Shown here piece by piece: positions 335 to 13,695 of a stretch of 14,324 nucleotides of DNA. Source of the DNA: Candidatus Rokuibacteriota bacterium (lineage in GTDB: Bacteria > Methylomirabilota > Methylomirabilia > Rokubacteriales > CSP1-6); the NCBI GenBank assembly GCA_016184305.1, contig JACPCX010000148.1, positions 1 through 14,324 on the forward strand. The letters are read 5' to 3'. The position numbers and the translations under genes are program-made. Below the pieces are notes generated by a model. The model worked only from the letters and a program-made list of their open reading frames with translations. It made no database searches and had not been told where the DNA came from. Numbering within the stretch: position 1 is the stretch's first letter; each line of letters starts with the position of its first letter.

Positions 335-1216
335 TCAAGTGCCGGTGTCGAAGGCGAAGCGCCAGGCGGCGCCGGCGCGGACGATGCGGCCGGCCGTTGG
401 GGTCGGGAAGTGGGCGGGCATGATCAGCGTGTCGGTCTCGGCGTGGCGCTCGAGGAAGGCACGGCGCGTTTGGGCCGCCTCGGCCGGAGCCGTGCAGAAG
501 CAGGTGCTCCAGTCGGGCTCGGCGCACTGCAGGGCGTGATGCATGAGGTCGCCGCTCATGACGGCCTGACGGCCGCCGGAGGCGAGGTGCAGGCACAGGT
601 GGCCGGGGGTGTGGCCGGGCGTGGGGGTCAGCGTGACGCCGTCCTCGATGGCGTGGTCGTCCTCCACCAGCACCGCCTGGCCCGCCTCGAGAATTGGCAG
701 GACGCTGTCCTGGTAGTGCGGCTCGACGGCCGCGCCGGGGCGCTGGAAGTGCTCCTGCCAGAACGCCAGTTCCCGGCGGCCGAACAGGTAGCGCGCCTTG
801 GGGAACGTGGGCACCCAGCGGCCGTCCCGCAGCCGGGTGTTCCAGCCCACGTGGTCCACGTGCAGGTGCGTGCACAGGACGACATCGATGTCCCCGGGTG
901 ATACGCCGGCCGCTGCGAGGCGCTCGAGGTAGGGCCAGTTCTTCATGTGGTAGCGCAGCTTCTGCGGGCGCGGCTTGTCGTTGCCCCCGCACGTATCCAC
1001 CAGGATGGTGTGGCGGGAGGTCCGCACCACGAAGCTGTGGAACGCCAGGACGAGCAGGCCTGTCCCCGGTTCCATCAGCACGGGCTCCAGCCAGTGGCGA
1101 TGGGCCTCGATGGCCGCCGGCGTGGACGCCGGGAACAGCGCGGCCGGCGGGAATACCGGCTCCTGGAATTCCACCACGCGATCCACCGTGAATTCGCCGA
1201 CCCTCCACCGTTCCAT
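335..1216 (-). CDS. Metallo-beta-lactamase-fold metallo-hydrolase (AHL-lactonase/methyl-parathion-hydrolase-like group)
   Basis: Motifs ILVDTCGGN, THLHVDHVGWN (HxHxDH), PTFPKARY, TPGHTPGH, SGDLMHH and MPAHF. Start moved to ATG 1216 (MERWRVGEF), which is preceded by SD GAAGGGGAG. The ORF-track extension to 1753 runs through non-coding-looking DNA. Confidence 0.92.
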   Translation of the reverse strand: MERWRVGEFTVDRVVEFQEPVFPPAALFPASTPAAIEAHRHWLEPVLMEPGTGLLVLAFHSFVVRTSRHTILVDTCGGNDKPRPQKLRYHMKNWPYLERLAAAGVSPGDIDVVLCTHLHVDHVGWNTRLRDGRWVPTFPKARYLFGRRELAFWQEHFQRPGAAVEPHYQDSVLPILEAGQAVLVEDDHAIEDGVTLTPTPGHTPGHLCLHLASGGRQAVMSGDLMHHALQCAEPDWSTCFCTAPAEAAQTRRAFLERHAETDTLIMPAHFPTPTAGRIVRAGAAWRFAFDTGT

Positions 1217-1787: not shown

Positions 1788-2405
1788 ATGATCTACGAGA
1801 TCCGGACGTACCAGCTGAAGCCCGGCAGCCTCGCCGAGGTCGAGAAGCGCTTCGGCGCCGGCTACGAGTCCCGCAAGAAGTACTCACCGCTCGCCGCGTT
1901 CTGGCACACGGAGATCGGCCCGCTCAACGAGATCGTCCACGTGTGGCCGTACGCGGACATGGCCGAGCGCACCCGCGTGCGCGCCGAGGCGGCCAAGGAT
2001 CCCAACTGGCCGCCGAAGACCGCGGAGTTCATCGTCCACATGCAGTCGGAGGTGGTGGTGCCGTTCCCGTTCGTGCCTGCGCTCCAGCCCGGCACGATGG
2101 GCCCGATCTTCGAGATGCGCTACTACACCATCAAGGCCGGGACCCTGCCGGACCTCATCAAGCGCTGGGAGGGGGCGGTGCCCGCGCGCATCAAGCTCTC
2201 GCCGCTGGCCCTGGCCGGTCACGTGGAGTTCGGCGAGGCCAACCGCTACATCCACGTATGGGCCTACGAGAGCCTCGACCAGCGCGCGGCCATTCGGAAC
2301 AAGGCCCGGGAGATGGGGGTGTGGCCGCCGCCCGGCGGCGGGGATAGTCTCTTGACCCAGGCGAACAAGATCCTGCTGCCCTCCTCATTCTCGCCGCTCC
2401 AGTAG
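1788..2405 (+). CDS. Tandem (two-domain) NIPSNAP family protein
   Basis: Two NIPSNAP repeats: MIYEIRTYQLKPG...FWHTEIGPLNEIVHVWPYADMAER and IFEMRYYTIKAG...NRYIHVWAYESLDQRAAIR...LLPSSFSPLQ. SD AAGGAGG precedes ATG 1788. Confidence 0.93.
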   Translation: MIYEIRTYQLKPGSLAEVEKRFGAGYESRKKYSPLAAFWHTEIGPLNEIVHVWPYADMAERTRVRAEAAKDPNWPPKTAEFIVHMQSEVVVPFPFVPALQPGTMGPIFEMRYYTIKAGTLPDLIKRWEGAVPARIKLSPLALAGHVEFGEANRYIHVWAYESLDQRAAIRNKAREMGVWPPPGGGDSLLTQANKILLPSSFSPLQ

Positions 2406-2647: not shown

Positions 2648-2663
2648 TGGCATCGCCCGTGCA
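2648..2663 (+). promoter_or_regulatory. Sigma54 (-24/-12) promoter of the TPR-RRE-ATP-grasp operon
   Basis: TGGCATCGCCCGTGCA has GG-N10-GC spacing and matches TGGCAC-N5-TTGCA. Predicted +1 is near 2674. Confidence 0.75.
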
Positions 2664-2804
2664 GTTGTCCTCCCGCATGCCACAACGTCCAGCGTGCAGG
2701 CGCTGTCAAGCAGCGCCACCGCGCCGCGGGGGCAGGTCACCTGGAAGCCACTCCATCCGCCAGTCGACGGGACGGGGCGGGTCGGAGCAACGGGAGGAGC
2801 CGCG

Positions 2805-5528
2805 ATGAGCAGGAGATCTCTGGTGTCAGTGGTGGGGTGCATCATCCTGGCCGGGCTCGCAGGCGCGATCCATGGCGCTGCGGCGGCGGAGCCCAGGATG
2901 GACGACGCGGTCAAGCTCTTCAAGGCGGAGAAGCTCGTCGAGGCCGAGAAGGCCCTGGGCGGCATCCTCGCGAAGTCGCCGGACGCGATGGATGCCCGTC
3001 TCCTCATGGGGTGGAGCCTCTGGGGCCAGGGGCGCTACGACGAGGCGCTGGTCCGCTTCAAGAGCGTGCTGCGCGAGGCCCCGGCCCAGCGCCGCCCGAC
3101 GACGGACGAGATAATCACCTTCAACATCGCCTCCGATGTCACCGCCATCAACAACCCCGACCTGGCCTCGGCCCGGAAGGGGCTCGGCTGGACCTACTTC
3201 AAGAAGGGGTGGATCCGGCTCGCGGGCGCGCAGTTCACCTCCCTCAACAAGCTCTCGTCCAACTGGGACGAGCCGTACCTCGGGCTCGGGTTCGTCTATC
3301 TCGCCCACGGAAAGTTCAACGAGTCCGAGGCCGCGTTCCGCGAGTACCTGGCCAAGACCCCGTCGGGGACGAACAAGCCCCACGAGGGCGCGCGCGGCCT
3401 GGGTGATCTGTTCGTCGCCAAGGGCGATCCCGCGAAGGCGATTCCGCACCTGGTGACGGCGCTCAAGGGAAAGCCCGGGTGGCTGGAGGTGCAGTCGCTC
3501 CTGGCGTGGAGCTATCTCCAGACGGGTGACTCCGCCAAGGCCGCGGAGATCTTCAGTCAGCTCAAGACGGCGCGCCCGGCCGAGGCCGAGGCGGGTCTGG
3601 CGTGGGTGGCCCTCAAGCGGGACCGGCTTGACGAGGCCGAAGCGGGATTCGGCCGCGCGCTGGTCGCCCTCCCGGGCTACGGCCGGGCGCTCGAAGGGAT
3701 ACGCGAGCTCCGCGGCAAGCGCTACAAGGCCTTCGACGAGGCCTGGGCGCTCTATTACGGAGGCAAGAATTCCGAGGCCGTGGCGGCATTCGAGCGGCTG
3801 AGCAAGGAGCCGGGGCGGCTGCCCGATACCATGAAGCCCCTGGTGCTCAATGGGCTCGGCTGGTCCCGGCTCGGGCTCGGCGAGGCGGAAGAGGCCGAGA
3901 AGATCTTCCAGGAGTCGCTGCGCCAGCTTCCGAACGGCGCCGAGGCCACGGCCGGCCTCGGATTCATCGCATTGCGCCGCAAGGAGTGGGAGAAAGCCGA
4001 GACGGCCTTCGTCCAGGCCAACGGGACCATCCCCGGCCTGGCGGCGGCGAACAATGGCTTCGCCGCGCTCCGCGCCGCGCGCTTCGGCCCGCACGACCGG
4101 GCCTGGGAGCTCTTCTATCTCGGCAAGCCCGAGCAGGCCATCAAGGCCTTCGAGGCCCTCCTGGCCAGCCCGGGTGACTTGCCCGCCGCGACGCTTCCAT
4201 TCATCCGCGGCGGCATCGGCTGGTCCCAGCTCGCGCTTGGCAAGGTCGATAGCGCCGAGGAAACCTTCAAGCAGATCCGGCCCGCCTCGAAGATGGAGGA
4301 GGCCGAGGCGAAGGCCGGCATCGGCTGGATCGCGCTCCGGCGCAACCAGCCCGAGCAGGCCCAGAAGCTCTTCACGGAGGCGCTGACCGGCGCGCCCGGC
4401 TACGCCGCCGCCCTGCGAGGGTTCGCCGAGCTGAGGCGTGTGCGCGCGCCCGAGCTGGACGTGGCGTGGGCCGCGTACAACCAGGGCAAGTTCGGGGACG
4501 CAGCGCCCATGTTCAACAAGGTGATCGAGACCGCCGGGCTGCCGGCCGAATACGTGCGGGAGGCCCGGCGCGGGCAGGCCTGGAGCCTCTACTACGGGGG
4601 CACGCTCCAGAATGCCGCCGACGAGTTCGAGAAGCTAGTCAAGGCCGGCGAGGACGCCGATGTCCTGTACGGGCAGGGGCTGGCTCTGGCCGGCCTGGGC
4701 CAGCACGGAACCGCCGCTCCCGCGCTCGGGCGCGCCGCCGCGCTCGTCCCCGGCTCCCTCGACTACCAGGCCGCCCACGGCCGAGCGCTGCTCGCCAGCG
4801 GCGATGCCAAGGGGGCCCTCGCGGCCTTCACGGCGGCCTACCGGATCGCTCCGGCCTCCGCCGAGGTGAATCGGATGCTCGGCTGGACCTACGTGAAGCT
4901 CAACCGGCCGGCGGAGGCCAAGGCGGCCTTCCGCTACGCCCTGACCCTGATCCCGGGCTACTCGGACGACAAGCCCTTCCGGGAGCTGACAGGCAGCAAG
5001 GATTACCGCGATCTCAGGGGCGACCTGGCCTGGGGCTATGTCAGGTGGCAGGCCTTCGAGTCCGCGCGCAAGCTCTTCGAGGAGATCGCCAAGGACGACG
5101 CGGCCGACGGCAACGCGTGGTTCGGCCACGGCTACGCCCTCTACAAGCTCGGCAAGACCTCCGAGACCGAGGCGAGCCTCAACCGCGCGCTCAAGGCCAA
5201 GCGCCGGGCGGAGCACCGCACGGTGTGGGTCGTGTTCCCGGAGTCGGGCAGCTACCCGGTCCTGACCGACGTGCAGTCCATTCTCGGCTGGGTCTCGCTG
5301 GTGGCGGGCAAGTGCGAGCAGGCCGTCGAGCGCTTCGACGCCTCGCTGGACCGCGACCCCGACCTGGTCGCCTCGATGGTGGGCAAGGCCATCTGCCTCG
5401 CGAAGAAGGGCGAGCACACCGCCGCGCGGGAGATTTACCTGACGGCGCAGGAGGTGTATCCGGCCTATCCGCCGGTGCTGGCCGGGCTCCGCGCGACCGA
5501 GCCGAAGAAAACGGCCGAGATCCGCTGA
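2805..5528 (+). CDS. Large secreted/periplasmic tetratricopeptide-repeat protein (~907 aa)
   Basis: SD GGAGGAG before ATG 2805. Sec-type signal peptide MSRRSLVSVVGCIILAGLAGAIHGAAA. Many TPR-like units with recurring (G/L)LGW..Y and A...F..AL...P. Confidence 0.9.
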   Translation: MSRRSLVSVVGCIILAGLAGAIHGAAAAEPRMDDAVKLFKAEKLVEAEKALGGILAKSPDAMDARLLMGWSLWGQGRYDEALVRFKSVLREAPAQRRPTTDEIITFNIASDVTAINNPDLASARKGLGWTYFKKGWIRLAGAQFTSLNKLSSNWDEPYLGLGFVYLAHGKFNESEAAFREYLAKTPSGTNKPHEGARGLGDLFVAKGDPAKAIPHLVTALKGKPGWLEVQSLLAWSYLQTGDSAKAAEIFSQLKTARPAEAEAGLAWVALKRDRLDEAEAGFGRALVALPGYGRALEGIRELRGKRYKAFDEAWALYYGGKNSEAVAAFERLSKEPGRLPDTMKPLVLNGLGWSRLGLGEAEEAEKIFQESLRQLPNGAEATAGLGFIALRRKEWEKAETAFVQANGTIPGLAAANNGFAALRAARFGPHDRAWELFYLGKPEQAIKAFEALLASPGDLPAATLPFIRGGIGWSQLALGKVDSAEETFKQIRPASKMEEAEAKAGIGWIALRRNQPEQAQKLFTEALTGAPGYAAALRGFAELRRVRAPELDVAWAAYNQGKFGDAAPMFNKVIETAGLPAEYVREARRGQAWSLYYGGTLQNAADEFEKLVKAGEDADVLYGQGLALAGLGQHGTAAPALGRAAALVPGSLDYQAAHGRALLASGDAKGALAAFTAAYRIAPASAEVNRMLGWTYVKLNRPAEAKAAFRYALTLIPGYSDDKPFRELTGSKDYRDLRGDLAWGYVRWQAFESARKLFEEIAKDDAADGNAWFGHGYALYKLGKTSETEASLNRALKAKRRAEHRTVWVVFPESGSYPVLTDVQSILGWVSLVAGKCEQAVERFDASLDRDPDLVASMVGKAICLAKKGEHTAAREIYLTAQEVYPAYPPVLAGLRATEPKKTAEIR

Positions 5529-5746
5529 TGGACCCGCGCTTTCTCTTCAAGGAGGACTGCGGAGACGTGTTCACCCTGAATTCCATGGGCGCGCTCGTCC
5601 ACCGCCTCTACCGGGAAGGGGCGGCGCCGGAGGACATCGCTCAGCGGCTGGCGAGATCCCACGGGATCTCGCCAGCCCGGGCGCTCGGCGACGTGCTCGC
5701 CTTTCTCGCCCAGGTGAGGATCCATGGACTCCAGTCCGCATCGTAG
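5528..5746 (+). CDS. Stand-alone PqqD-family / RiPP recognition element (RRE) protein (72 aa)
   Basis: ATG overlaps the TPR stop (TGATG). MDPRFLFKEDCGDVFTLNSMGALVHRLYREGAAPEDIAQRLARSHGISPARALGDVLAFLAQVRIHGL fits the PqqD pattern G..FxLN..G..(I/V).....G....EI...L...Y.V....A..DV..FL..L...GL. It is the last 72 aa of ORF-track 4466..5746. Confidence 0.82.
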   Translation: MDPRFLFKEDCGDVFTLNSMGALVHRLYREGAAPEDIAQRLARSHGISPARALGDVLAFLAQVRIHGLQSAS

Positions 5747-6797
5747 CCTGACCGTCGCGATCACGGGGCTCGCGGCCTCGGACAACCCGGGGCCGGGGGT
5801 GGCTGTGGCGCGCTGCCTCAGGGAGTCGCCCGGGTTCAGGGGGAAGCTTGTCGGGCTCTCCTTCGACCATCGCTTCACCGGGCTGTATGCAACCGGTCTG
5901 TTCGACGAGGCCTTCCTCATCCCGGCTCCGTCCTACGGGGACCGGAGCTTCGTCCAGGCGCTGGCCGACATCAAGCGGCACACTGCCATCGACGTGCTGG
6001 TACCCGCGCTGGACCCCGATGTCGGGCTGTGCGCCGCGACACGCCGCTCGCTGGGGGCGCTCGGAATCCACACACTCGTGCCCGACGCGGCCGCCATCCG
6101 CCGCCGGGCCAAGTCGGTGCTCACGCCGCTGGCCGAGACCGTCGGGTTTTCCGCCCCGCGGACGCTTACGCTGTTCTCGCAAACCGCCATGACGGCCGCG
6201 CTCCGCGACCTCACGCTCCCGTTCTTCCTCAAGGGGTCCTTTGCCGACGCGAGGCTCGTGAGCACGGCGGAGCAGGCGCACGCGGAGTTCGAGCGGCTGG
6301 TCGGCCAATGGGGATTTCCTCTGCTGGCCCAGGAGCGGGTGCTCGGCGACGAGCTGAATCTGACCGTGCTCTTCAACCGCAAGAGCGAGCTGGTCGGAGC
6401 CGTGCCCATGCGGAAGCTGGGCGTCACGGACCGGGGCAAGGGCTGGGCCGGAGTCACGGTGCGGCTGCCGGACGTCGTGGAGCGCGCCGGCGCGCTGCTG
6501 CGGTCCATCGACTGGGTGGGCCCCGCCGAGCTGGAGATGATCCGCGATCCCGCCTCGAACCGGTTCTACCTCATCGAGATCAACCCCCGCTTCCCCGCGT
6601 GGACCTATCTCACGGCGGCGGCGGGACAGAATCTGCCGTGGGCGGCGGTGCAGCTCGCCATGGGACGAGAGGTCCGGCTCTTCCGCGAGGTCCGGCCGGG
6701 ACAGCTCTTCGTCCGGTCGGTCGAGGATGCCTTCATTCCCTTCGACCAGGTGGAGGCGCTGAGGTCCTCGCGTCATCTGGTCCTGCGGGGGATGTAA
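5724..6797 (+). CDS. ATP-grasp (carboxylate-amine ligase-like) protein with intact active site
   Basis: N-terminal VAITGLAASDNPGPG, then LPFFLKG, PLLAQERVLGDE, GPAELEM and FYLIEINPRFPAW (ExN metal/ATP motif). Confidence 0.88.
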   Translation: MDSSPHRSLTVAITGLAASDNPGPGVAVARCLRESPGFRGKLVGLSFDHRFTGLYATGLFDEAFLIPAPSYGDRSFVQALADIKRHTAIDVLVPALDPDVGLCAATRRSLGALGIHTLVPDAAAIRRRAKSVLTPLAETVGFSAPRTLTLFSQTAMTAALRDLTLPFFLKGSFADARLVSTAEQAHAEFERLVGQWGFPLLAQERVLGDELNLTVLFNRKSELVGAVPMRKLGVTDRGKGWAGVTVRLPDVVERAGALLRSIDWVGPAELEMIRDPASNRFYLIEINPRFPAWTYLTAAAGQNLPWAAVQLAMGREVRLFREVRPGQLFVRSVEDAFIPFDQVEALRSSRHLVLRGM

Positions 6798-6801
6798 GGG
6801 C

Positions 6802-7911
6802 ATGAGCGCGAAGCCGACATGGGTGGGGATCACGGGCATCACCTCGGCGGACGAGCCGAGCGCCGGGCTGGCCGCGGCGCAATCGCTCAAACGGGGGCCC
6901 GGCGCCGCGGGCTTCCGCGTCGTGGCGCTCGCGGAGAGCGCCTTCTCGGACGGAATCCAGGCCGTGCCCGCGGCCGACGAGGTGGTCGTGGTGCCCTCGC
7001 CCCAGCACGAGCCGGAGGCCTTCGTCGCGGCGGTCCGCGAGCTGGCTCGCGGCCGGCGCTTCGTCCTGCTGGCGGGCTCGCCGGCGGACGTTGTGGCGCT
7101 GGCGCCTCGCCGCGACGCCCTCTCCCAGGCGGGCGTCCGCCACATGCTCCCGTCGCCCCGTCAGGTCTCGACTCTGCCGTTTCTCGGGGTGGCGAGGGTC
7201 GCCGGGTTGCGAATCCCACGCGGCACCGGGCTCGATCCCGCGAGCGTCGGAAGGCTAGCGCTCCGGCCGCAGTCCTGGCCCCTGGTGCTGCGGACCACAG
7301 ACGGGCGCCTGGCCTCGGCCGCCACGCCCGCCGAGATCCCGGCGCTGGCCCAGGCGCTGGCTCGCCCCTGGGGCATGGTGACACGCGCCCACGAGCCGGT
7401 GCTGGGGTCGGAGATCAGCGTCGCCGTCCTGTGCGGCGGCCACGGGCGACCGCTGGGGATGGCCGCGGCGATACCGCTCCAGCGCGGCGGCAACGGGGCT
7501 GTCTGGTCCGCCGTGACGACCGCCGATCCAGGGGTCCTGGCTGCCACGCGGCGCATCCTCGATGTCGCGCGCTGGACCGGCCCCGGCGAGCTTCACCTGA
7601 TCCGCGACGAGGGGGGCGCGCTCTGGTTCACGGGCGTGACGCCGGGCTTCCCCTCCTGGATCTCGCTGGCCGCCGCGGCCGGCCGGCCGCTGGTCCACCA
7701 GTACCTGGGCCTCTGCCTCGGGGCGGCGCCGCTTCTCCCCGGGGCGTACCGGGACGGCCTGTTCATGTCCCGGGTGGCCATGGACATCGCGATGCCGATC
7801 ACCACGCTTGGCCGACTGGCCACCGAAGGAGCCTTCTCCCATGACACACACCACGCAGGAACGCTACGAGCGGCCCCTGATCATGCGGCGCGAGCTCGGG
7901 TCGCTCACTAA
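6802..7911 (+). CDS. Degenerate ATP-grasp paralog, probably catalytically inactive
   Basis: Colinear with the preceding gene: VGITGITSADEPSAG vs VAITGLAASDNPGPG, WTGPGELHLIRD vs WVGPAELEMIRD, and FTGVTPGFPSW vs LIEINPRFPAW. Confidence 0.8.
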   Translation: MSAKPTWVGITGITSADEPSAGLAAAQSLKRGPGAAGFRVVALAESAFSDGIQAVPAADEVVVVPSPQHEPEAFVAAVRELARGRRFVLLAGSPADVVALAPRRDALSQAGVRHMLPSPRQVSTLPFLGVARVAGLRIPRGTGLDPASVGRLALRPQSWPLVLRTTDGRLASAATPAEIPALAQALARPWGMVTRAHEPVLGSEISVAVLCGGHGRPLGMAAAIPLQRGGNGAVWSAVTTADPGVLAATRRILDVARWTGPGELHLIRDEGGALWFTGVTPGFPSWISLAAAAGRPLVHQYLGLCLGAAPLLPGAYRDGLFMSRVAMDIAMPITTLGRLATEGAFSHDTHHAGTLRAAPDHAARARVAH

Positions 7912-9277
7912 GCAGTGGGGCGGCGGGGGTCCCGGCGCCCCCCCCATCGCCGTCGGTGAAGCGGTGGACGGCGTCAGCGCCCAGAGTCTGAAGACCAAGT
8001 ACGGCTCTCCGCTCTACGTCGTGTCCGAGGCCACGCTGCGGAAGAATCTCCGCGGGTTCCTCTCGGCCTTCCGCTCCCGCTATCCCGAGACGGTGTTGGC
8101 GTACTCGTACAAGACGAATTACGTGTCCGGGATCTGCGCCACCCTCCACCAGGAAGGGGCGTGGGCCGAGGTGGTGTCCGGGTTCGAGCTGGAGCGCGCC
8201 CGCGCGCTGGGCATGCCCGGGTCCCAGATCGTCTACAACGGCCCGTACAAGCCCTTCGATCACCTCCTCGAGGCGGCGCGTCTCGGCGTCCGGATCAACG
8301 TGGACAACCTCGAGGAGCTGGCCGACCTCGAGGAGGTGTCGCGGCAGCTCAAGCGCCCGGTCAAGATCGGGATCCGGGTGAACATGCGTCTCAACGATCC
8401 GCCGTGGGACAAGTTCGGCTTCAACATCGAGTCGGGCCAGGCGCTGGAGGTGTGCCGGAGGATTCACGGCTCGAAGCTCCTCCGGCTCGCGGGCCTGCAC
8501 CTCCACGCCGGCACCTATCTCGCCAACGTGGAGATCTACAAGCGCGCCATCACCGGGCTCCTGGAGCTGGCCATGACCGTCGAGGCGCAGCGCCTGGGCG
8601 ACATCGAGTACGTGGATCTCGGCGGCGGATACGCCTCGCGGAACACCATCCTCAGCCAGCTCCTGCCCGGCGAGATGACGGCGCCGAGCTACGCCGAGTA
8701 CGCCGAGGCCATCTCTGCCCCCCTCAAGGCCTGCGTCAAGCGGCTGCCCCGCCGCCCGCTGCTGATCCTGGAGCCGGGTCGCGCCATCGTGGACGATGCC
8801 GTCACCCTCCTGGTGAGCGTCGTGGCAGTGAAGAAAACCCCCGACGGGCGGACCCTGGTCGTGGTGGATGGCGGCGTGAATCTCCTGCCCACCGCCTACT
8901 ACTTCAGGCACGACGTGGTCGCCGGGCGCGAGGTGGACGGAGACTCCGCGCGCGTGGACATCGTCGGACCCCTCTGCATGCAGATCGACGTGCTGCGGCG
9001 GGACGTGTCGCTGCCCCCGGTCAGCCGGGGCAGCATCCTCCTCTTCCGTAACGCCGGCGCCTACACGGTCTCCAACTCGATGCAGTTCATCTACCCGCGG
9101 CCTCCCGTCGTCGTCGTCTCCGGGCGGCAGACGCATGTGCTCCGGCGAGGCGAGCGGACGGAGGACCTGGTGCGCCTGGACGAGATGCCTGCCCATCTCG
9201 CGCCACGGTCCGCGGCGTCGAGCCGGAATGGCCACAAGACGGCCCGCGCGAACGGCAACGGGCGAGGTCACAGCTGA
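7841..9277 (+). CDS. Fold-type III PLP-dependent decarboxylase (diaminopimelate/ornithine decarboxylase family), substrate unknown
   Basis: YGSPLYV, AYSYKTN (PLP lysine codon at 8111), EVVSGFE, YNGPYK, KFG, HLHAGT, DLGGG, EPGRAIV, VDGG, GPLCMQID and AGAY. SD AAGGAG at 7826-7831 precedes ATG 7841. Confidence 0.9.
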   Translation: MTHTTQERYERPLIMRRELGSLTKQWGGGGPGAPPIAVGEAVDGVSAQSLKTKYGSPLYVVSEATLRKNLRGFLSAFRSRYPETVLAYSYKTNYVSGICATLHQEGAWAEVVSGFELERARALGMPGSQIVYNGPYKPFDHLLEAARLGVRINVDNLEELADLEEVSRQLKRPVKIGIRVNMRLNDPPWDKFGFNIESGQALEVCRRIHGSKLLRLAGLHLHAGTYLANVEIYKRAITGLLELAMTVEAQRLGDIEYVDLGGGYASRNTILSQLLPGEMTAPSYAEYAEAISAPLKACVKRLPRRPLLILEPGRAIVDDAVTLLVSVVAVKKTPDGRTLVVVDGGVNLLPTAYYFRHDVVAGREVDGDSARVDIVGPLCMQIDVLRRDVSLPPVSRGSILLFRNAGAYTVSNSMQFIYPRPPVVVVSGRQTHVLRRGERTEDLVRLDEMPAHLAPRSAASSRNGHKTARANGNGRGHS

Positions 9278-11472
9278 ACTTCTGGCGCGCGGTGCTCAGC
9301 GGGGCCGGCCAGGTCCTCTGTGCCGCGTCCCCGAAGGCGGGGGCGTGGTTCCTCCTGGCCTTCGCCCTCTTCTCGCCCGAGGCGGCGCTCGGGGCCGTCC
9401 TGGGCCTGGTGGTCGCCACGGGGATGGCTCGCGGGCTCGGCTGGAACGAGTTGCTGCTCGGCCAGGGGCTGTTCGGCTACAACGCCGCCATGCTGGGGCT
9501 CGCCTGGACGGCGTTCTTCCCGCTGCCATCACCGGGCTTCCTCCTCGTGCTGCCGGCGGCCGCCGTCACGACCTGGCTCCACGGCCGCCTGCTGCCCCCC
9601 TTCGGCCGCCGGGAGCTGCCGGTGCTCGGCCTCCCGTTCGTCCTGGTGGTCTGGGGTGCCGGTCTCCTCTGTGTGGCGCTCGGTGTCGGGCAATTGTCTC
9701 CGATCATCCCTCCCGCGATTGCGGGTCCGGGGGCGGGCTGGACGACTCCGGCCCTCAGGGCCGCCGCCGCCTCGTTTGCTGTCACCTCGCTGCCGGGAGC
9801 GGCGGCTGCCGCCATCGGGCTCTGGTGCGTGTCGCGGGTGGCTCTCGGCGTTGCGCTCGCGGGCCTCACCCTCGGGCTCGGGACTGCCATGCTCCTGGGG
9901 GGCGTCGAGGGGGTGCTCTGGATGGGCGGCTACGCGTACACGGCGCTGCCCGTGGCGGTGGGGACGGCCGGCGTGTTCTTCCCGCTGAACGCGCGGATGC
10001 TCGCCCTCGCGGCCGCGCTGTCGGTGGTGGGCGTGGTGGGATGGGTGGGCCTCGTCTGGGCCCTGGCGCCCATCGGACTCTTCGCCGTCACCGCGGTCGC
10101 CCACGCCCTGGTGCTGGGCCTGCTCATCGCGGCGAAGAGCCGCGCGCTCTCGGCTGCCCTGGGGATCCGCCCGCGACCCCTCTCCGAGGCGGCCCTGCCC
10201 GGAGGGCTCGCGGAGGTCGTGGCGACAGGGCCGTTGCCCGAGGCCGAGATCAGCGAGCTCGTACGGCTGATCCGCCGGTCCTCGAGCATCGTCGTGCTCT
10301 CGGGGGCGGGCATGAGCACCGAGTCCGGCATTCCGGACTACCGGAGCCAGACCGGGTTCTGGTACGACGCCAATGCCGAGGCCCTGACCTACTCTCGCTT
10401 CCTGGAGTCGGGATTTTCCCGGCGCCTTCACTGGCGGCTCCATCGGCGATTCAGCCGCGCGCTCGGCCGGGCGCGGCCGAACGCCGGCCACCGCCTGCTC
10501 GTCGATCTCGAGCGCGAGGGGAAGCTCCTCGGGGTCATCACGCAGAACGTGGACGGCCTGCACCAGGCGGCGGGCCTTCCGGAGGCGCGCGTGGTCGAGC
10601 TGCACGGCAACGTCACCGAGGCGGTGTGTCTCCGTTGCGAGGAGCGGCTGCCGTCAAAGTCCGTCCGGCCGCGAGGATGGTGGAAGCCGCCCGCGTGCCC
10701 CGGCTGTGGCGGACCCCTCAAGGTCGACTCGGTGAGCTTCGGGGAGGATCTCGACCCGAGCCGGCTGGCGCTGGCGGCCTGGTGGTCTCGAAGCGCCGAC
10801 CTGATGCTCATCCTCGGGACCTCCCTGCAGGTGGCGCCGGCGTCGAACCTCCCGGAGATGGCCCGGGAGCGAGGCATGCCCCTCGCGATCGTCAACCGGA
10901 CTGAAACCCGACTCGACCCCTGGGCGGCCCTCGTGGTGCGAGGCCCCGCGGCCCGGGTGCTCGAGGAGGTGAGGAGGCGCCTCATGACTGCTCCCGTCCC
11001 GCGACTGATCCGCCCCATGACCCGGCTCGACTTCCTCCACCTGTGCAGGGTCGTGGACTCCTGGTGGAACGATCAGGTCCGCTACCTGCTCCATCCCCTC
11101 TACCTCGAGCACTTCCCGCAAACCTGCTTCGTCTGCGAGGAGGCGGGGGACGTGGCCGGCTTCCTGGTCGGGTTCATCTCCCAGGGGCGCCCCGAGGAAG
11201 CGTACGTGCACCTCGTGGGCACCGCCCCGGCCTCCCGGGGCCAGGGGATAGGGCGGGCGCTGTACGAGCACTTCTTCGAGGTGGTGCGCAGCCGCGGATG
11301 CGTCAAGGTGCTGGCCATCACCGTGCCCCACAACGAGGGGTCGCTGGCCTTCCACCGCCAGATGGGCTTTCGGTTCCGGGAAGAGGGCGGAGCATGGGCC
11401 GGGACGGTGCCCCTGGTCCCCGACTACGCCGGCCCTGGCGTTCACTGCGTGCTCATGGAGCGGAAGCTGTAG
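9274..11472 (+). CDS. Fusion protein: urea-transporter-like membrane domain + Sir2/sirtuin NAD-dependent deacylase + YqjY-like GNAT acetyltransferase
   Basis: UT-like part: [30 protein letters not shown] and many hydrophobic helices (to ~10140). Sirtuin: [43 protein letters not shown]...CPGC, GTSLQV, IVN. GNAT: DSWW...[10 protein letters not shown]...[20 protein letters not shown]...[10 protein letters not shown]...[13 protein letters not shown]...DYAGPG. Start is either CTG 9274 (proposed) or GTG 9292. Confidence 0.85.
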
Positions 11473-11539: not shown

Positions 11540-12880
11540 ATGGACCGACCGCGAGTTCTCGTTGTGGACGACGAGAAGATGATCCGCGAGATGCTCGCGG
11601 AGGCTCTCGCCTCGTGGGGGTACGAGGCCTCCACCGTGGGCAGTGCCGAGGAGGCGCTGGAGGCCCTGGCCCGGAGCCTGGTTGACGTGGTGCTCCTCGA
11701 CATCATGATGCCGGGCATGAGCGGCATCGACCTGCTCCGCGAGATCAAGCACCGGGACCTGGACGTCGACGTCCTGATGATGACCGGCCGCCCCACGGTG
11801 GAGACGGCCGTCCAGGCCTTGAAGGCGGGCGCCTGCGACTACCTCGAGAAGCCCCTGAATCTGGACGTGCTCCGCCACCTCATGGGCGGAGTGATCGAGC
11901 GGCGACTCCTCCGGCAGGAAGTGCATGCCCTACGCGCCCGCGTGGGGGACCAGCTCGGCGCCATGGAGCTGGTCGGGGTGTCGGACGCCATGCAGCGGCT
12001 CCGGGACCTCATCGACCGGGTGGCGAGCAGCGACTCCCCGGTCCTGATCGAGGGCGAGAGCGGCACGGGCAAGGAACTGGTGGCGGGGGCCATCCACCAC
12101 CGGTCGCCTCGCGGCCGCGCCCCGTTCATCCCGGTCAACTGCGGCGCCATTCCCGCGGATCTTATGGAGTCCGAGTTCTTCGGCCACGCGCGCGGCGCCT
12201 TCTCGGGTGCGGTGGCCGATGCCCTTGGCCTGATCCGCTCCGCCCACGGCGGCACGATCTTCCTCGACGAGATCGCCGAGCTCCCAGCGGCGCTGCAGGT
12301 CAAGCTCCTCCGCGTGCTCCAGGACACGGAGGTGCGTCCCGTCGGCTCCGTCAAGACCTTCAAGGTGGATGTGCGCGTGATCGCCGCCACCAATCAGAAC
12401 GTGGAGCAGGCCGTACGGGCCGGCACCTTCCGCCAGGATCTCTTCTATCGCCTCAACGTGGTGAGCATCCTGGTCCCGCCCCTGCGGGAGCGTCGGGCGG
12501 ACATCCCGCCCCTGGTGACCCACTTCCTCCGCCAGCTCAACCAGAAGCTCGGCCGGCGGGTGAGCGGGGTCGGGCCGGCCGCGATGGCGGCGCTCATGGG
12601 TTACGACTTTCCCGGCAACGTGAGGGAGCTGGAGAACCTCCTCCATCGCGCGTACGCTCTGGGCGCCAGGGAGGAGATCACGCTCGAGGATTTGCCGGTA
12701 CTGCAGTCCCGCCCCGAGGAGCCCGAGCCGGCCGGGGGGCTGCCAACCCTCGCGGCGGCCGAGCGAGAGCTCATTCTCCGGGTCCTTCGCCACCACGGTG
12801 GCGACAAGGACCAGGCAGCCCGGGCGCTCGGGATCTCCCGGCGCACCCTCTACCGCCGGATCGAGGAATACGGCGCCTAG
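11540..12880 (+). CDS. NtrC/AtoC-family sigma54-dependent response regulator (REC-AAA+-Fis HTH)
   Basis: [15 protein letters not shown] (phospho-Asp), [11 protein letters not shown] (Walker A), ESEFFGH..GAFSGA, IFLDEI (Walker B), [21 protein letters not shown] and [16 protein letters not shown]. Start is ATG 11540 or TTG 11528. Confidence 0.95.
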
Positions 12881-13091
12881 CAGGCTGCTGAAAAAGGCCC
12901 ATCTGCGGAGGTACGGCGCCCTCAGCCGCACGCTCAACGTGGCTCGCTCACGCTCGCCCGGATCTCCGGATCCGCTCGTCTCGCCTCCGGCTCGGCTCGC
13001 CAAGCGAAGTACGCCTCGCGTGCGGCCGTCGGGCGCCGCCTCGCATCTGGACCTTTTTGAGCAGCCTGCGGGTTCTTCAGCAACCGGCTAG
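12877..13091. mobile_element. MITE-like non-autonomous element with terminal inverted repeats and CTAG flanks
   Basis: Left end ctagcaggctgctgaaaaa; the right end read as reverse complement is ctagccggttgctgaagaa (16/19). An internal IR pairs gcaggctgctgaaaaaggcccatctgcg with cgcatctggacctttttgagcagcctgc. No transposase. Confidence 0.7.
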
Positions 13092-13250: not shown

Positions 13251-13266
13251 TGGCAAGAGACCTGCA
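13251..13266 (+). promoter_or_regulatory. Sigma54 (-24/-12) promoter of the receiver/kinase genes
   Basis: TGGCAAGAGACCTGCA with GG-N10-GC spacing. Predicted +1 is near 13277. Confidence 0.7.
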
Positions 13267-13281
13267 AATACCGTTCTCCGT

Positions 13282-13695
13282 ATGATCGGGCGCTCAGCGC
13301 TGGCAAGAGGCCGTCTTCACTGGGTCCTGGTGGTCGACCAGGACGAATCCGTAGCCGGCTCCCTGGCCAGGCGCTTCCAGGAGCGGGGCCTCACGGCCCA
13401 CGCCACCGCCTCCGGCAAGGAGGCATTGCGGCTGGCGAGCCTCAGGAAGCCGACCCTGGCCATCATCGACCTGATGCTCGGCGACATGGGAGGCGTGGAG
13501 CTGGCCCAGCGTCTCAGGGAGCTCGACCCGGAGCTGGCCATGGTCGTGACGACGAGCGATCGGCGCCCGGCCCTCGAGGTCGAGGCCCGGAGGGTGGGAA
13601 TCGTTCACTACGCCCACAAGCCCCTCGACCTCGACCGGCTCGACGCCGTCATGACGAGGGCCATCCACACCCTCGAGCGAGGAGATCACAGATGA
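13282..13695 (+). CDS. Single-domain response regulator (CheY-like receiver)
   Basis: VLVVDQD, ASGKEAL, AIIDLMLGDMGG (phospho-Asp), VVTT and YAHKP. Confidence 0.88.
   Translation: MIGRSALARGRLHWVLVVDQDESVAGSLARRFQERGLTAHATASGKEALRLASLRKPTLAIIDLMLGDMGGVELAQRLRELDPELAMVVTTSDRRPALEVEARRVGIVHYAHKPLDLDRLDAVMTRAIHTLERGDHR

Follow-up and report, generated by a model that had tools for sequence, protein, structure and literature searches.

In the LysW/LysX system, an ATP-grasp ligase tethers an amino acid through an amide bond to the C-terminal glutamate carboxylate of a small carrier protein, and later enzymes act on it there. In the BtrI/BtrJ/BtrK system of butirosin, as in the CtaD/CtaE/CtaF and FlvN/FlvL/FlvO systems, Glu or Asp is loaded by a ligase, via its side chain, onto a carrier and is then trimmed by a decarboxylase of the diaminopimelate decarboxylase (DAPDC) clade, as in the pairs BtrJ/BtrK, CtaD/CtaF and FlvN/FlvO (PMC11350588, PMC7857480). 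FigC, SbnH, AcsE, MccE and BtrK form a clade with DAPDC whose substrates are conjugated, peptide-bound or carrier-bound amino acids, and which is reported as unrelated to polyamine synthesis (PMC7857480). In lasso peptides, the leader carries a YxxPxL motif that spans positions -17 to -12 (PMC10368454). Here, we describe an operon of an uncultured groundwater bacterium, Candidatus Rokuibacteriota bacterium, in which a PqqD-family protein, two ATP-grasp proteins and a decarboxylase of this clade are encoded together with a membrane-anchored sirtuin. The window, by which we mean the whole stretch of DNA analysed, is the complete contig JACPCX010000148.1 (14,324 nucleotides, 14.3 kb, G+C ~70%; C99 in our numbering) of the 3.2-Mb, 88.8%-complete assembly GCA_016184305.1; the closest database proteins bear the names Candidatus Rokubacteria or Methylomirabilia. 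The operon is very probably a sigma54-controlled, sirtuin-type variant of a widespread and undescribed cassette of PqqD, ATP-grasp, decarboxylase and urea transporter (UT)-fusion genes. A tentative proposal for its chemistry, in which a lysine on the decarboxylase tail would serve as a carrier, is set out at the end.

The operon and the cassette to which it belongs

Inspection of the sequence places six genes head to tail on the plus strand at 2805-11472. They encode a tetratricopeptide repeat (TPR) protein of 907 aa (2805-5528), a 72-aa PqqD-family protein with the fold of a recognition element (RRE) of peptides that are made on the ribosome and modified after translation (RiPPs) (5528-5746), an ATP-grasp ligase (ATP-grasp 1, 5724-6797), a degenerate paralogue of the latter (ATP-grasp 2, 6802-7911), a pyridoxal phosphate (PLP) decarboxylase of alanine-racemase fold belonging to the DAPDC/FigC/BtrK clade (7841-9277) and a 726-aa triple fusion of UT-like, SIR2 and GNAT domains (9292-11472). 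A preliminary description, made from the letters alone, had named the same gene and domain content, which Pfam confirms throughout except for ATP-grasp 2, recognised by identity only; the six co-oriented, tightly packed genes and the overlaps it gave are likewise all present. The stop of the TPR gene and the start of the PqqD gene are combined in TGATG (5526-5530), the PqqD gene overlaps ATP-grasp 1 (ATG 5724) by 23 nt (5724-5746), a 4-nt gap (6798-6801) lies between the ATP-grasp 1 stop at 6797 and the ATP-grasp 2 start at 6802, and ATP-grasp 2 (stop at 7911) overlaps the decarboxylase gene (ATG 7841) by 71 nt (7841-7911), or by only 29 nt if an alternative in-frame ATG at 7883 is used. The last junction had been given as CTGA at 9274-9277. 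The stop codon TGA of the decarboxylase gene is indeed found at 9275-9277; the CTG at 9274 is in frame with the last gene but is a non-standard start, and the ordinary start GTG 9292 is likelier, which leaves a 14-nt gap and gives a protein of 726 aa, equal in length to a 98%-identical database protein. On the plus strand between 2805 and 11472, no sigma70-like promoter and no intrinsic terminator were found, and no Rfam family reached its gathering score in the scan.

A collection with one genome per species was searched with a profile of ATP-grasp 1. Of 600 pattern-matched stretches 597 were confirmed, so that at least 597 are present, and the best 80 were analysed. The decarboxylase gene, whose product is ~40% identical to that of the window, follows the ATP-grasp directly in 76 of these best 80 loci, with a median spacing of 57.5 nt between the two matches, so the homologues are co-localised in other genomes. 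As for the other four, two lie at a contig edge, L011 continues with a second ATP-grasp and then ends, and L018 is taken up below. After 13 of the 76 loci with less than 1.5 kb of downstream sequence had been dropped, 63 were testable; the ORF (open reading frame) after the decarboxylase matches UT in 62, M23 peptidase in 61 and SIR2 in none of them. On the upstream side, an ORF of 65-160 aa ends at the ATP-grasp start in 62 of 71 loci examined, and all 40 small upstream ORFs that were aligned (from 38 loci, the window and the same-genus genome G003) match PqqD. In addition, PqqD and ATP-grasp are fused in three database proteins (P0025, P0030 and P0033). The order PqqD, ATP-grasp, decarboxylase, UT::M23 is found in Mucilaginibacter, Leptospira, Melioribacter and one genome of Obscuribacterales; the first three have, behind it, a protein that is unassigned or of TPR type, a small TPR protein, or both, whereas the Obscuribacterales locus continues with a histidine kinase and has a TPR ORF ~3 kb further on. 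The core cassette spans hundreds of species of Bacteroidota, Myxococcota, Ignavibacteriota, Spirochaetota, Melainabacteria, Pseudomonadota and Methylomirabilota. The preliminary description had named a neighbourhood of TPR, PqqD, ATP-grasp, LysA-like and UT genes in other bacteria, often with M23 on the transporter, and the counts above bear this out. It had also called the cluster uncharacterised, and so it appears: no NCBIfam model passes its cut-off for cassette members, none of the six operon proteins matched a PADLOC family (0 families, hence no known SIR2 anti-phage system), and no description of the cassette was found in the full-text literature covered, which leaves out most subscription journals.

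Since SIR2 and GNAT domains occupy, in the window, the M23 position on the transporter-like domain, the window represents a variant and not a canonical member. The same six-gene layout with SIR2 in place of M23 (type A) is found in the window and in the genomes G001, G003 and G028. A paralogous cluster (type B), present in G003 and G016, consists of a TPR protein, a 730-aa double ATP-grasp, a decarboxylase (43% identical) and a UT::SIR2 protein without GNAT; its PqqD was found in G003, the genome of the two that was checked for it. A further cluster is carried by a 155-kb betaproteobacterial metagenome contig, with a TPR protein of 1140 aa, a fused double ATP-grasp, a decarboxylase and UT::SIR2, and with a 97-aa ORF in the PqqD position that gave no PqqD match in the search, Pfam not having been applied to it. 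In the fused proteins of type B and of the betaproteobacterial contig, both ATP-grasp halves keep the catalytic motif. Among 58 hits in a protein collection, 21 clusters combine UT, SIR2 and GNAT, and 23 combine UT and SIR2. Sirtuin-type cassettes are a recurrent subfamily, with two paralogous forms in the phylum of the window and members in Betaproteobacteria; a pair of ATP-grasp domains and, upstream, a large TPR protein are always part of them. The traits that set the window apart are SIR2 and GNAT in place of M23, a dead ATP-grasp 2, a divergent UT domain and the large upstream TPR protein.

The genes that follow UT::SIR2 differ between these relatives. In the type-B locus of G003 (L093, contig C139, 2359-4797, minus strand), residues 474-735 of an 812-aa protein form a luciferase-like monooxygenase domain, preceded by an N-terminal part of 470 aa without family assignment; the butirosin side-chain route uses the luciferase-like monooxygenase BtrO, to which this domain offers a parallel. 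In G016 (L096, contig C68, 1975-5551, minus strand), the next genes encode a glutamine amidotransferase of AsnB type and a fusion of half a UT domain with TPR repeats, and on the betaproteobacterial contig (L097, 11640-13105) a NadE-like gene of the NAD_synthase family and a separate GNAT of the Acetyltransf_3 family, which could supply NAD+ or another amidation step.

Decarboxylase, ligases and the membrane fusion

The decarboxylase matches Orn_Arg_deC_N (PF02784, 1.6e-31) and PF00278 and, in an alignment of 43 sequences, retains all residues invariant in the family, the PLP lysine among them. Of the solved structures, the N-citrylornithine decarboxylase FigC comes closest to it (7kh2; 3.4e-58, 200.5 bits, residues 48-437), followed by DAP decarboxylase (best match 1twi, 3.1e-46, at most 161 bits) and BtrK (7ru7, 6.6e-22, 80.9 bits). 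With 251.5 bits on the LysA model (TIGR01048), below the cut-off of 297.9, it is not LysA by score. Given this kinship with FigC and BtrK, and a clade that acts on conjugates, ligation would come before decarboxylation. The preliminary description had the opposite order, in which a basic amino acid is first converted to a free amine, which the ATP-grasp would go on to join to a peptide or protein that the RRE brings in. The fold is that of Orn/Lys/DAP enzymes, and some ATP-grasps, RimK and LysX among them, attach amines to carboxylates of proteins, which would suit such a scheme. However, the enzyme stays under the LysA cut-off and lies nearest to FigC and other conjugate-acting enzymes, its clade is reported as unrelated to polyamine synthesis (PMC7857480), and the scheme explains neither the tail nor the sirtuin described below. 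The order is therefore probably reversed, and we consider an amine-first pathway very unlikely.

A second scheme, closer to the FigA/FigC one, accepts ligation first. In rhizoferrin synthesis by FigA/FigC (FslA/FslC), and with SbnH and AcsE, ligation is followed by decarboxylation of the conjugate, the order that is also proposed here. The ATP-grasp would then join a small acid to an amino acid, or one amino acid to another, and the decarboxylase would trim the free conjugate, with PqqD and the tail only holding the enzymes together, SIR2 and GNAT tailoring or regulating, and the UT domain passing the product. FigC as the closest solved relative, the use of free citryl conjugates by SbnH and AcsE of the same clade (PMC7857480), the lack of a separate precursor gene among those seen in the window, a TonB-dependent receptor near the Leptospira locus and a narrow UT pore that suits a small molecule (PMC11589576) are all in line with it. 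Yet an ATP-grasp stands in place of the NIS synthetase (for siderophores made independently of nonribosomal peptide synthetases), no such synthetase (IucA/IucC) being found among the window proteins scanned by Pfam, and the FslC model (NF041039) gives 208.3 bits against a cut-off of 500. Moreover, FigC has no PqqD partner, and the conserved N-terminal motif of the window enzyme lies outside the FigC-aligned region. The scheme also leaves an invariant lysine, the exchange of M23 for a deacylase and a covarying neighbour residue, all described next, without explanation, so that we hold it to be doubtful.

This N-terminal motif is the most distinctive part of the cassette decarboxylases. A few residues past their start, these share the pattern [YFW]-E-x-P-x-[IL]-x5-G-x3-K, which in the window reads YERPLIMRRELGSLTK, i.e., takes the form YERPxI-x5-G-x3-K, within the tail segment YERPLIMRRELGSLTKQWGG (residues 9-28, 7865-7924, plus strand; the codon of Lys24 is 7910-7912). 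The strict motif fits 77 of 83 tails, and the lysine stands at +15 from the aromatic residue in 82 of them and at +14 in one, the six non-strict tails having been judged by eye (five at +15, one at +14). Pro12 and Lys24 are invariant across the 43 aligned decarboxylases, which come from many phyla. In the AlphaFold2 (AF2) model, the decarboxylase has a mean predicted local distance difference test (pLDDT) value of 88.5 and residues 1-40 only 39-60; a tail that is predicted to be disordered despite its conservation suggests a docking or substrate segment. The Y-x-x-P-x-[IL] part resembles the YxxPxL motif of lasso leaders. A complex prediction of PqqD with tail residues 1-45 scored 0.34 versus 0.02 for the best of three controls, a result termed 'weak support'; the mark is reached by 116 of 157 solved complexes and by 2 of 215 mismatched pairs, and passing scores up to 0.60 comprise only 18 of the 157 solved complexes and both of the passing mismatches. 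The runs agreed in at least 90% of contacts, with a partner pLDDT of at least 49.

The residue two positions after the tail lysine follows the downstream module. K-x-G is found in 60 of the 63 cassettes with a downstream ORF of the UT set (61 of which match M23) and in none of the eight SIR2 cassettes, where KQW, KYS or KHR is found instead; for another 12 loci, whose downstream genes are unknown, the tail reads K-x-G in 11 cases and KYS in one. This split is a pattern and not a statistical test, the SIR2 set being drawn from few related lineages.

The PqqD protein itself is recognised by PF05402 (1.9e-9, 38.1 bits versus a cut-off of 23.4); its best NCBIfam match is the lasso PqqD model (38 bits, cut-off 70), and in the alignment it is without the first strand that canonical cassette PqqDs have. 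As in the lasso B1 proteins, a stand-alone PqqD-fold protein would meet a partner segment of the form Y-x-x-P-x-[IL], to be compared with YxxPxL (PMC10368454). Unlike in lasso systems, the 'leader' is the N-terminus of an enzyme, and the window has no B2 cysteine protease and no lasso cyclase. The claim of the preliminary description that the RRE delivers a peptide substrate needs amending: the PqqD/RRE protein is there, but the peptide it binds may be the tail of the decarboxylase itself and not a separate substrate, as the motif and the weak complex prediction suggest. In a classical RiPP pathway, by contrast, a precursor gene located elsewhere or missed would supply a peptide that PqqD hands to the ATP-grasp for residue addition or cross-linking. 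The RRE fold and the existence of PqqD-ATP-grasp fusions fit such a pathway, which we nevertheless consider the least probable of the schemes discussed here, as no conserved small ORF was found in the window, every one of the 83 tails examined has the leader-like motif as part of the decarboxylase, and the ATP-grasp belongs to PF15632/carbamoyl-phosphate-synthetase-like models and to no known RiPP ligase family. Small ORFs in 2405-2805, the only sizeable gap before the first gene, were considered as precursors and rejected, since single-base indels relative to G003 break their frames.

ATP-grasp 1 passes PF15632 narrowly (29.9 bits versus a cut-off of 29.1), is modelled with a pLDDT of 89.6 (AF2) and has intact catalytic residues (K170, E285, N287 and R289, within and before the motif 'EINPRFPAW'). 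ATP-grasp 2 matches no Pfam or NCBIfam family and is recognisable only by its 30% identity to ATP-grasp 1. It has lost the ATP-binding Lys (K170 to R), the Mg-binding Glu and Asn (E285 to G, N287 to T) and the catalytic Arg (R289 to G), with 'GVTPGFPSW' in place of 'EINPRFPAW'. These losses are shared by all 14 members of its family (14 of 14), including those with as little as 38% identity, while other positions stay conserved, and ATP-grasp 2 is thus likely a retained, non-catalytic partner. What had been described as an ATP-grasp pair does consist of two paralogues, of which one is an intact enzyme and the other a conserved dead one. In a tree of ATP-grasp domains from 31 chosen rows (12 from sirtuin-type clusters and 19 canonical), the canonical domains form one clade (99/99) and ATP-grasp 2 sits on a long branch; the branching among ATP-grasp 1, the dead ATP-grasp 2 and both fused halves lacks resolution.

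The TPR protein (TPR_16, 7.1e-56) has TPR matches as far as residue 888 and is PrsT-like (135.8 bits, under the NCBIfam cut-off of 312.2). Its sole hydrophobic segment is at residues 3-28, a likely signal peptide, and the protein is therefore probably periplasmic.

In the fusion protein, Pfam assigns UT to residues 2-280, SIR2 to 338-516 and GNAT to 595-693. The UT-like membrane domain (residues 1-293, ~9292-10170, plus strand; 3.4e-23) is divergent, with 82.7 bits (cut-off 25) versus 146-194 in canonical cassettes, and stays far below the cut-off of the urea-transporter equivalog TIGR03441 (62.5 versus 274.6 bits). Urea transporters have ten full transmembrane helices, a narrow pore and a polar relay Q(Pa)-T(5a)-T(5b)-Q(Pb) (PMC11589576). 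Compared with dvUT (3k3f, 1.5e-10), the window domain keeps Q-V(Pa) and T(5b), has Gly for T(5a) and has lost the Q/E-V motif of Pb, so that its role may be that of a trimeric scaffold in the membrane and not of a pore for urea. No hydrophobic segment was found in the fusion past residue 292, and ten full helices would put both ends of the protein on the same side of the membrane. The fused SIR2 and GNAT modules should face the cytoplasm because they need NAD+ and acyl-CoA, which are cytoplasmic; by its position, and by analogy, the canonical M23 domain should do likewise. The M23 domain, the likeness of the decarboxylase to LysA and, in L096, a neighbour of AsnB type had raised the idea of peptidoglycan stem-peptide editing, which was set aside because the fused modules should face the cytoplasm and no other tie to murein genes is seen.

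The SIR2 domain (~10249-10983, plus strand; 1.6e-39, 136.2 bits versus a cut-off of 24) is of CobB type. It aligns end to end with Sir2Tm (1yc5, 1.3e-36), keeps the NAD-binding motifs, the catalytic His and both CxxC pairs, and shows the motifs GAGxS...GIPxYR, TQNVD and HG in alignments to Sir2Tm and Sir2-Af1; as in the CobB and Sir2Tm deacylases, Sir2 motifs, catalytic His and zinc cysteines are all kept. On the protein-deacylase model, it reaches 226.5 bits, just under the cut-off of 243, and the alignment to Sir2-Af1 is gapped at the Y-x-x-R acyl-pocket region of class III. The GNAT domain (~11074-11370, plus strand; Acetyltransf_1, 1.4e-18) has the usual acetyl-CoA motif region, and its best named relative is EctA with only 41.9 bits. 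Pat and CobB switch acetyl-CoA synthetase by lysine acetylation and deacetylation, and a similar switch could be imagined here, with GNAT acetylating and SIR2 deacetylating a lysine (Lys24 or one on another protein) and the biosynthesis taking place elsewhere. The CobB-like SIR2 domain would suit this role, as would the fusion of writer and eraser in one protein in 21 database clusters; the 23 clusters with UT-SIR2 and without GNAT would not, nor would L097, where a GNAT from another subfamily has a gene to itself. Unlike CobB and Pat, moreover, SIR2 is placed between a UT-like domain and GNAT in a biosynthetic-looking operon, at the position taken by M23 in 61 of 63 canonical cassettes, and M23 is no acetyl eraser. 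A regulatory switch is thus quite improbable.

Promoter, regulators and flanking genes

Upstream of the TPR gene, a -24/-12 (sigma54-type) promoter-like element, TGGCATCGCCCGTGCA (2648-2663, plus strand), has two mismatches to TGGCAC-N5-TTGCW and shows the GG-N10-GC geometry of sigma54 promoters. Counting alone does not set the match apart from chance: the window has two sites of this quality where 4.0 are expected, and two or more are found in 179 of 200 shuffles. However, the 16-mer is identical at 16 of 16 positions in the same-genus orthologue in G003, where the ten flanking bases on each side show many differences, and in L011, a locus of another genus with a 72% identical ATP-grasp, a -24/-12 site with one mismatch lies ~100 nt before the TPR gene. 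In addition, the genome encodes RpoN (rpoN), and an NtrC-type sigma54-dependent response regulator gene (11540-12880, plus strand, from ATG 11540, the ORF opening with TTG 11528; Sigma54_activat 2.3e-68, Response_reg 8.1e-30, HTH_8 2.9e-15) follows the operon; a sigma54 activator gene adjoins the cluster in G001 and G003 too. Sigma54 control of the operon is likely on these sequence features, which lend support to the single sigma54 promoter assumed in the preliminary description where the match count does not. The linkage to a sigma54 regulator is not universal, because in G028 (L094, contig C125, 2786-4747, minus strand) an RHS-repeat protein takes its place after the type-A cluster, with no sigma54 activator.

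A perfect 10+10-nt palindrome (ACGGGCGATG/CATCGCCCGT, 2640-2660) overlaps the promoter-like 16-mer. It was considered as an operator and rejected, as its left arm has diverged in G003 whereas the 16-mer is conserved there, and the promoter reading was kept. Further upstream, 70-125 nt before the -24/-12 site, lies an imperfect inverted repeat, GGAATGTGCCAG ... CTGGCATTCC (2535-2578), which was read by eye and has arms differing by a 1-nt indel; conserved in G003 as well, it is a candidate site for binding of the activator.

The NtrC-type gene is followed, on the same strand, by genes for a stand-alone receiver (13282-13695; Response_reg 1.4e-18) and, overlapping it by 4 nt, a PAS histidine kinase (13692 to the contig end at 14324; PAS_9 1.3e-16 and histidine-kinase models), which are likely sensory partners. 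A second -24/-12-like site, TGGCAAGAGACCTGCA (13251-13266, two mismatches), is found 16 nt before the receiver gene, and its role as a promoter is doubtful because this spacing leaves almost no leader. The spacer between activator and receiver genes (12906-13044) is a variable intergenic stretch, 67-136 nt of which are missing from the contigs that public runs contain for related strains.

Three public groundwater runs labelled 'metatranscriptomic', from two studies, contain contigs that are 90-99% identical to pieces of the operon; two of the three share a single sample and probably represent DNA. The RNA-Seq run has a contig that covers 4720-5801 (the end of the TPR gene, PqqD and the start of ATP-grasp 1) and another that covers 2761-3556. 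Such assembled contigs indicate presence in an RNA library and not a transcript, DNA carry-over being possible, and the stretches without run coverage (1-2390, 6693-7170 and others) are uninformative. On the other side of the operon, the window encodes an MBL-fold homologue of AidB-like lactonases (335-1213, minus strand; 93.8 bits, under the model cut-off) and a NIPSNAP protein (1788-2405, plus strand, by Pfam); no link of these two genes to the operon was seen.

A lysine on the decarboxylase tail as a possible carrier

The observed gene linkage, catalytic residues kept and lost, tail motif and module exchange can be brought together in one scheme, of which we infer every chemical step, substrate and product. 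PqqD would grip the YxxPxI part of the leader-like decarboxylase tail and present the tail to ATP-grasp 1, with the dead ATP-grasp 2 as a structural partner. ATP-grasp 1 would then use ATP to ligate an amino acid of Glu or Asp type, via its side-chain carboxylate, to the invariant Lys24, and the decarboxylase would strip the alpha-carboxylate of the tethered residue in cis, much as BtrK, CtaF and FlvO do on carrier proteins. GNAT may cap the new amine. SIR2, which the UT-like domain would keep at the membrane's inner face, would off-load the acyl group with NAD+ and so regenerate the carrier, a step that in the canonical cassette would fall to the M23 zinc amidase, removing the same group hydrolytically. 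The product would finally exit, next to the UT-like domain or by way of it, in the direction of the periplasmic TPR protein. Sirtuins deacylate N-epsilon-acyl-lysine, and M23 enzymes cleave amide bonds, including those on side-chain amines of murein peptides; with M23 and SIR2 exchanged at the same position and an invariant lysine whose neighbour is linked to the module, the lysine would most simply carry a removable acyl group. As a whole, this carrier-lysine cycle is the preferred of the readings discussed here but a tentative one, possible rather than probable. Its most specific form, in which the decarboxylase is its own template, the membrane-anchored sirtuin off-loads in a biosynthetic and not a regulatory role, and the product is O-acyl-ADP-ribose-linked or N-acetylated, is unlikely on present grounds.

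Compared with the described carrier systems, the window shares with butirosin a DAPDC-clade decarboxylase (BtrK, 6.6e-22) beside an intact ATP-dependent ligase. Unlike in butirosin, Pfam shows no PP-binding carrier domain in the ten window proteins scanned, PqqD, the UT-like membrane fusion and TPR proteins are added, and off-loading would proceed via SIR2 or M23 and not via an acyltransferase. Because the carrier would be a lysine on the decarboxylase tail, the proposed bond is an amide and not a thioester. The LysW/LysX carrier is, in turn, a separate protein, and nothing resembling a LysW gene or motif was noticed in the window, no dedicated search for one having been made.

Several points weigh against the carrier-lysine cycle. 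The acylation of Lys24 is purely inferred, and the conserved lysine could be a mere residue of the docking motif. A pass in complex prediction such as that of PqqD and the tail is more often wrong than right unless the pairing was already likely. The split between K-x-G and non-Gly tails does not represent independent events because it follows one or few old lineages, and K-x-G suits a backbone cut by M23 next to glycine equally well as an isopeptide cut. The nearest folds of ATP-grasp 1, in both a fold search and a profile search of solved structures, are generic (2pn1, carbamoyl-phosphate synthetase, biotin carboxylases and PurK), so that they do not hint at a substrate. Export via the UT domain is doubtful because of the narrow pore and the partly lost relay, and a Glu- or Asp-derived product, of the type of gamma-aminobutyrate (GABA) or beta-alanine, seems too ordinary for such an elaborate system. 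Finally, in L018 (Polyangiaceae), an ATP-grasp relative (40% identity) has no decarboxylase within 10 kb downstream.

If the carrier-lysine cycle holds true, the biology of RREs would extend from the 'leader peptide' to a 'leader on an enzyme', a lysine-based carrier would join the known thiol and carboxylate carriers, and sirtuins would gain a role in making a metabolite. The module exchange, together with the change of the residue near the lysine, amounts to a natural experiment and points to an N-epsilon-acyl-lysine on the decarboxylase tail as a testable intermediate.

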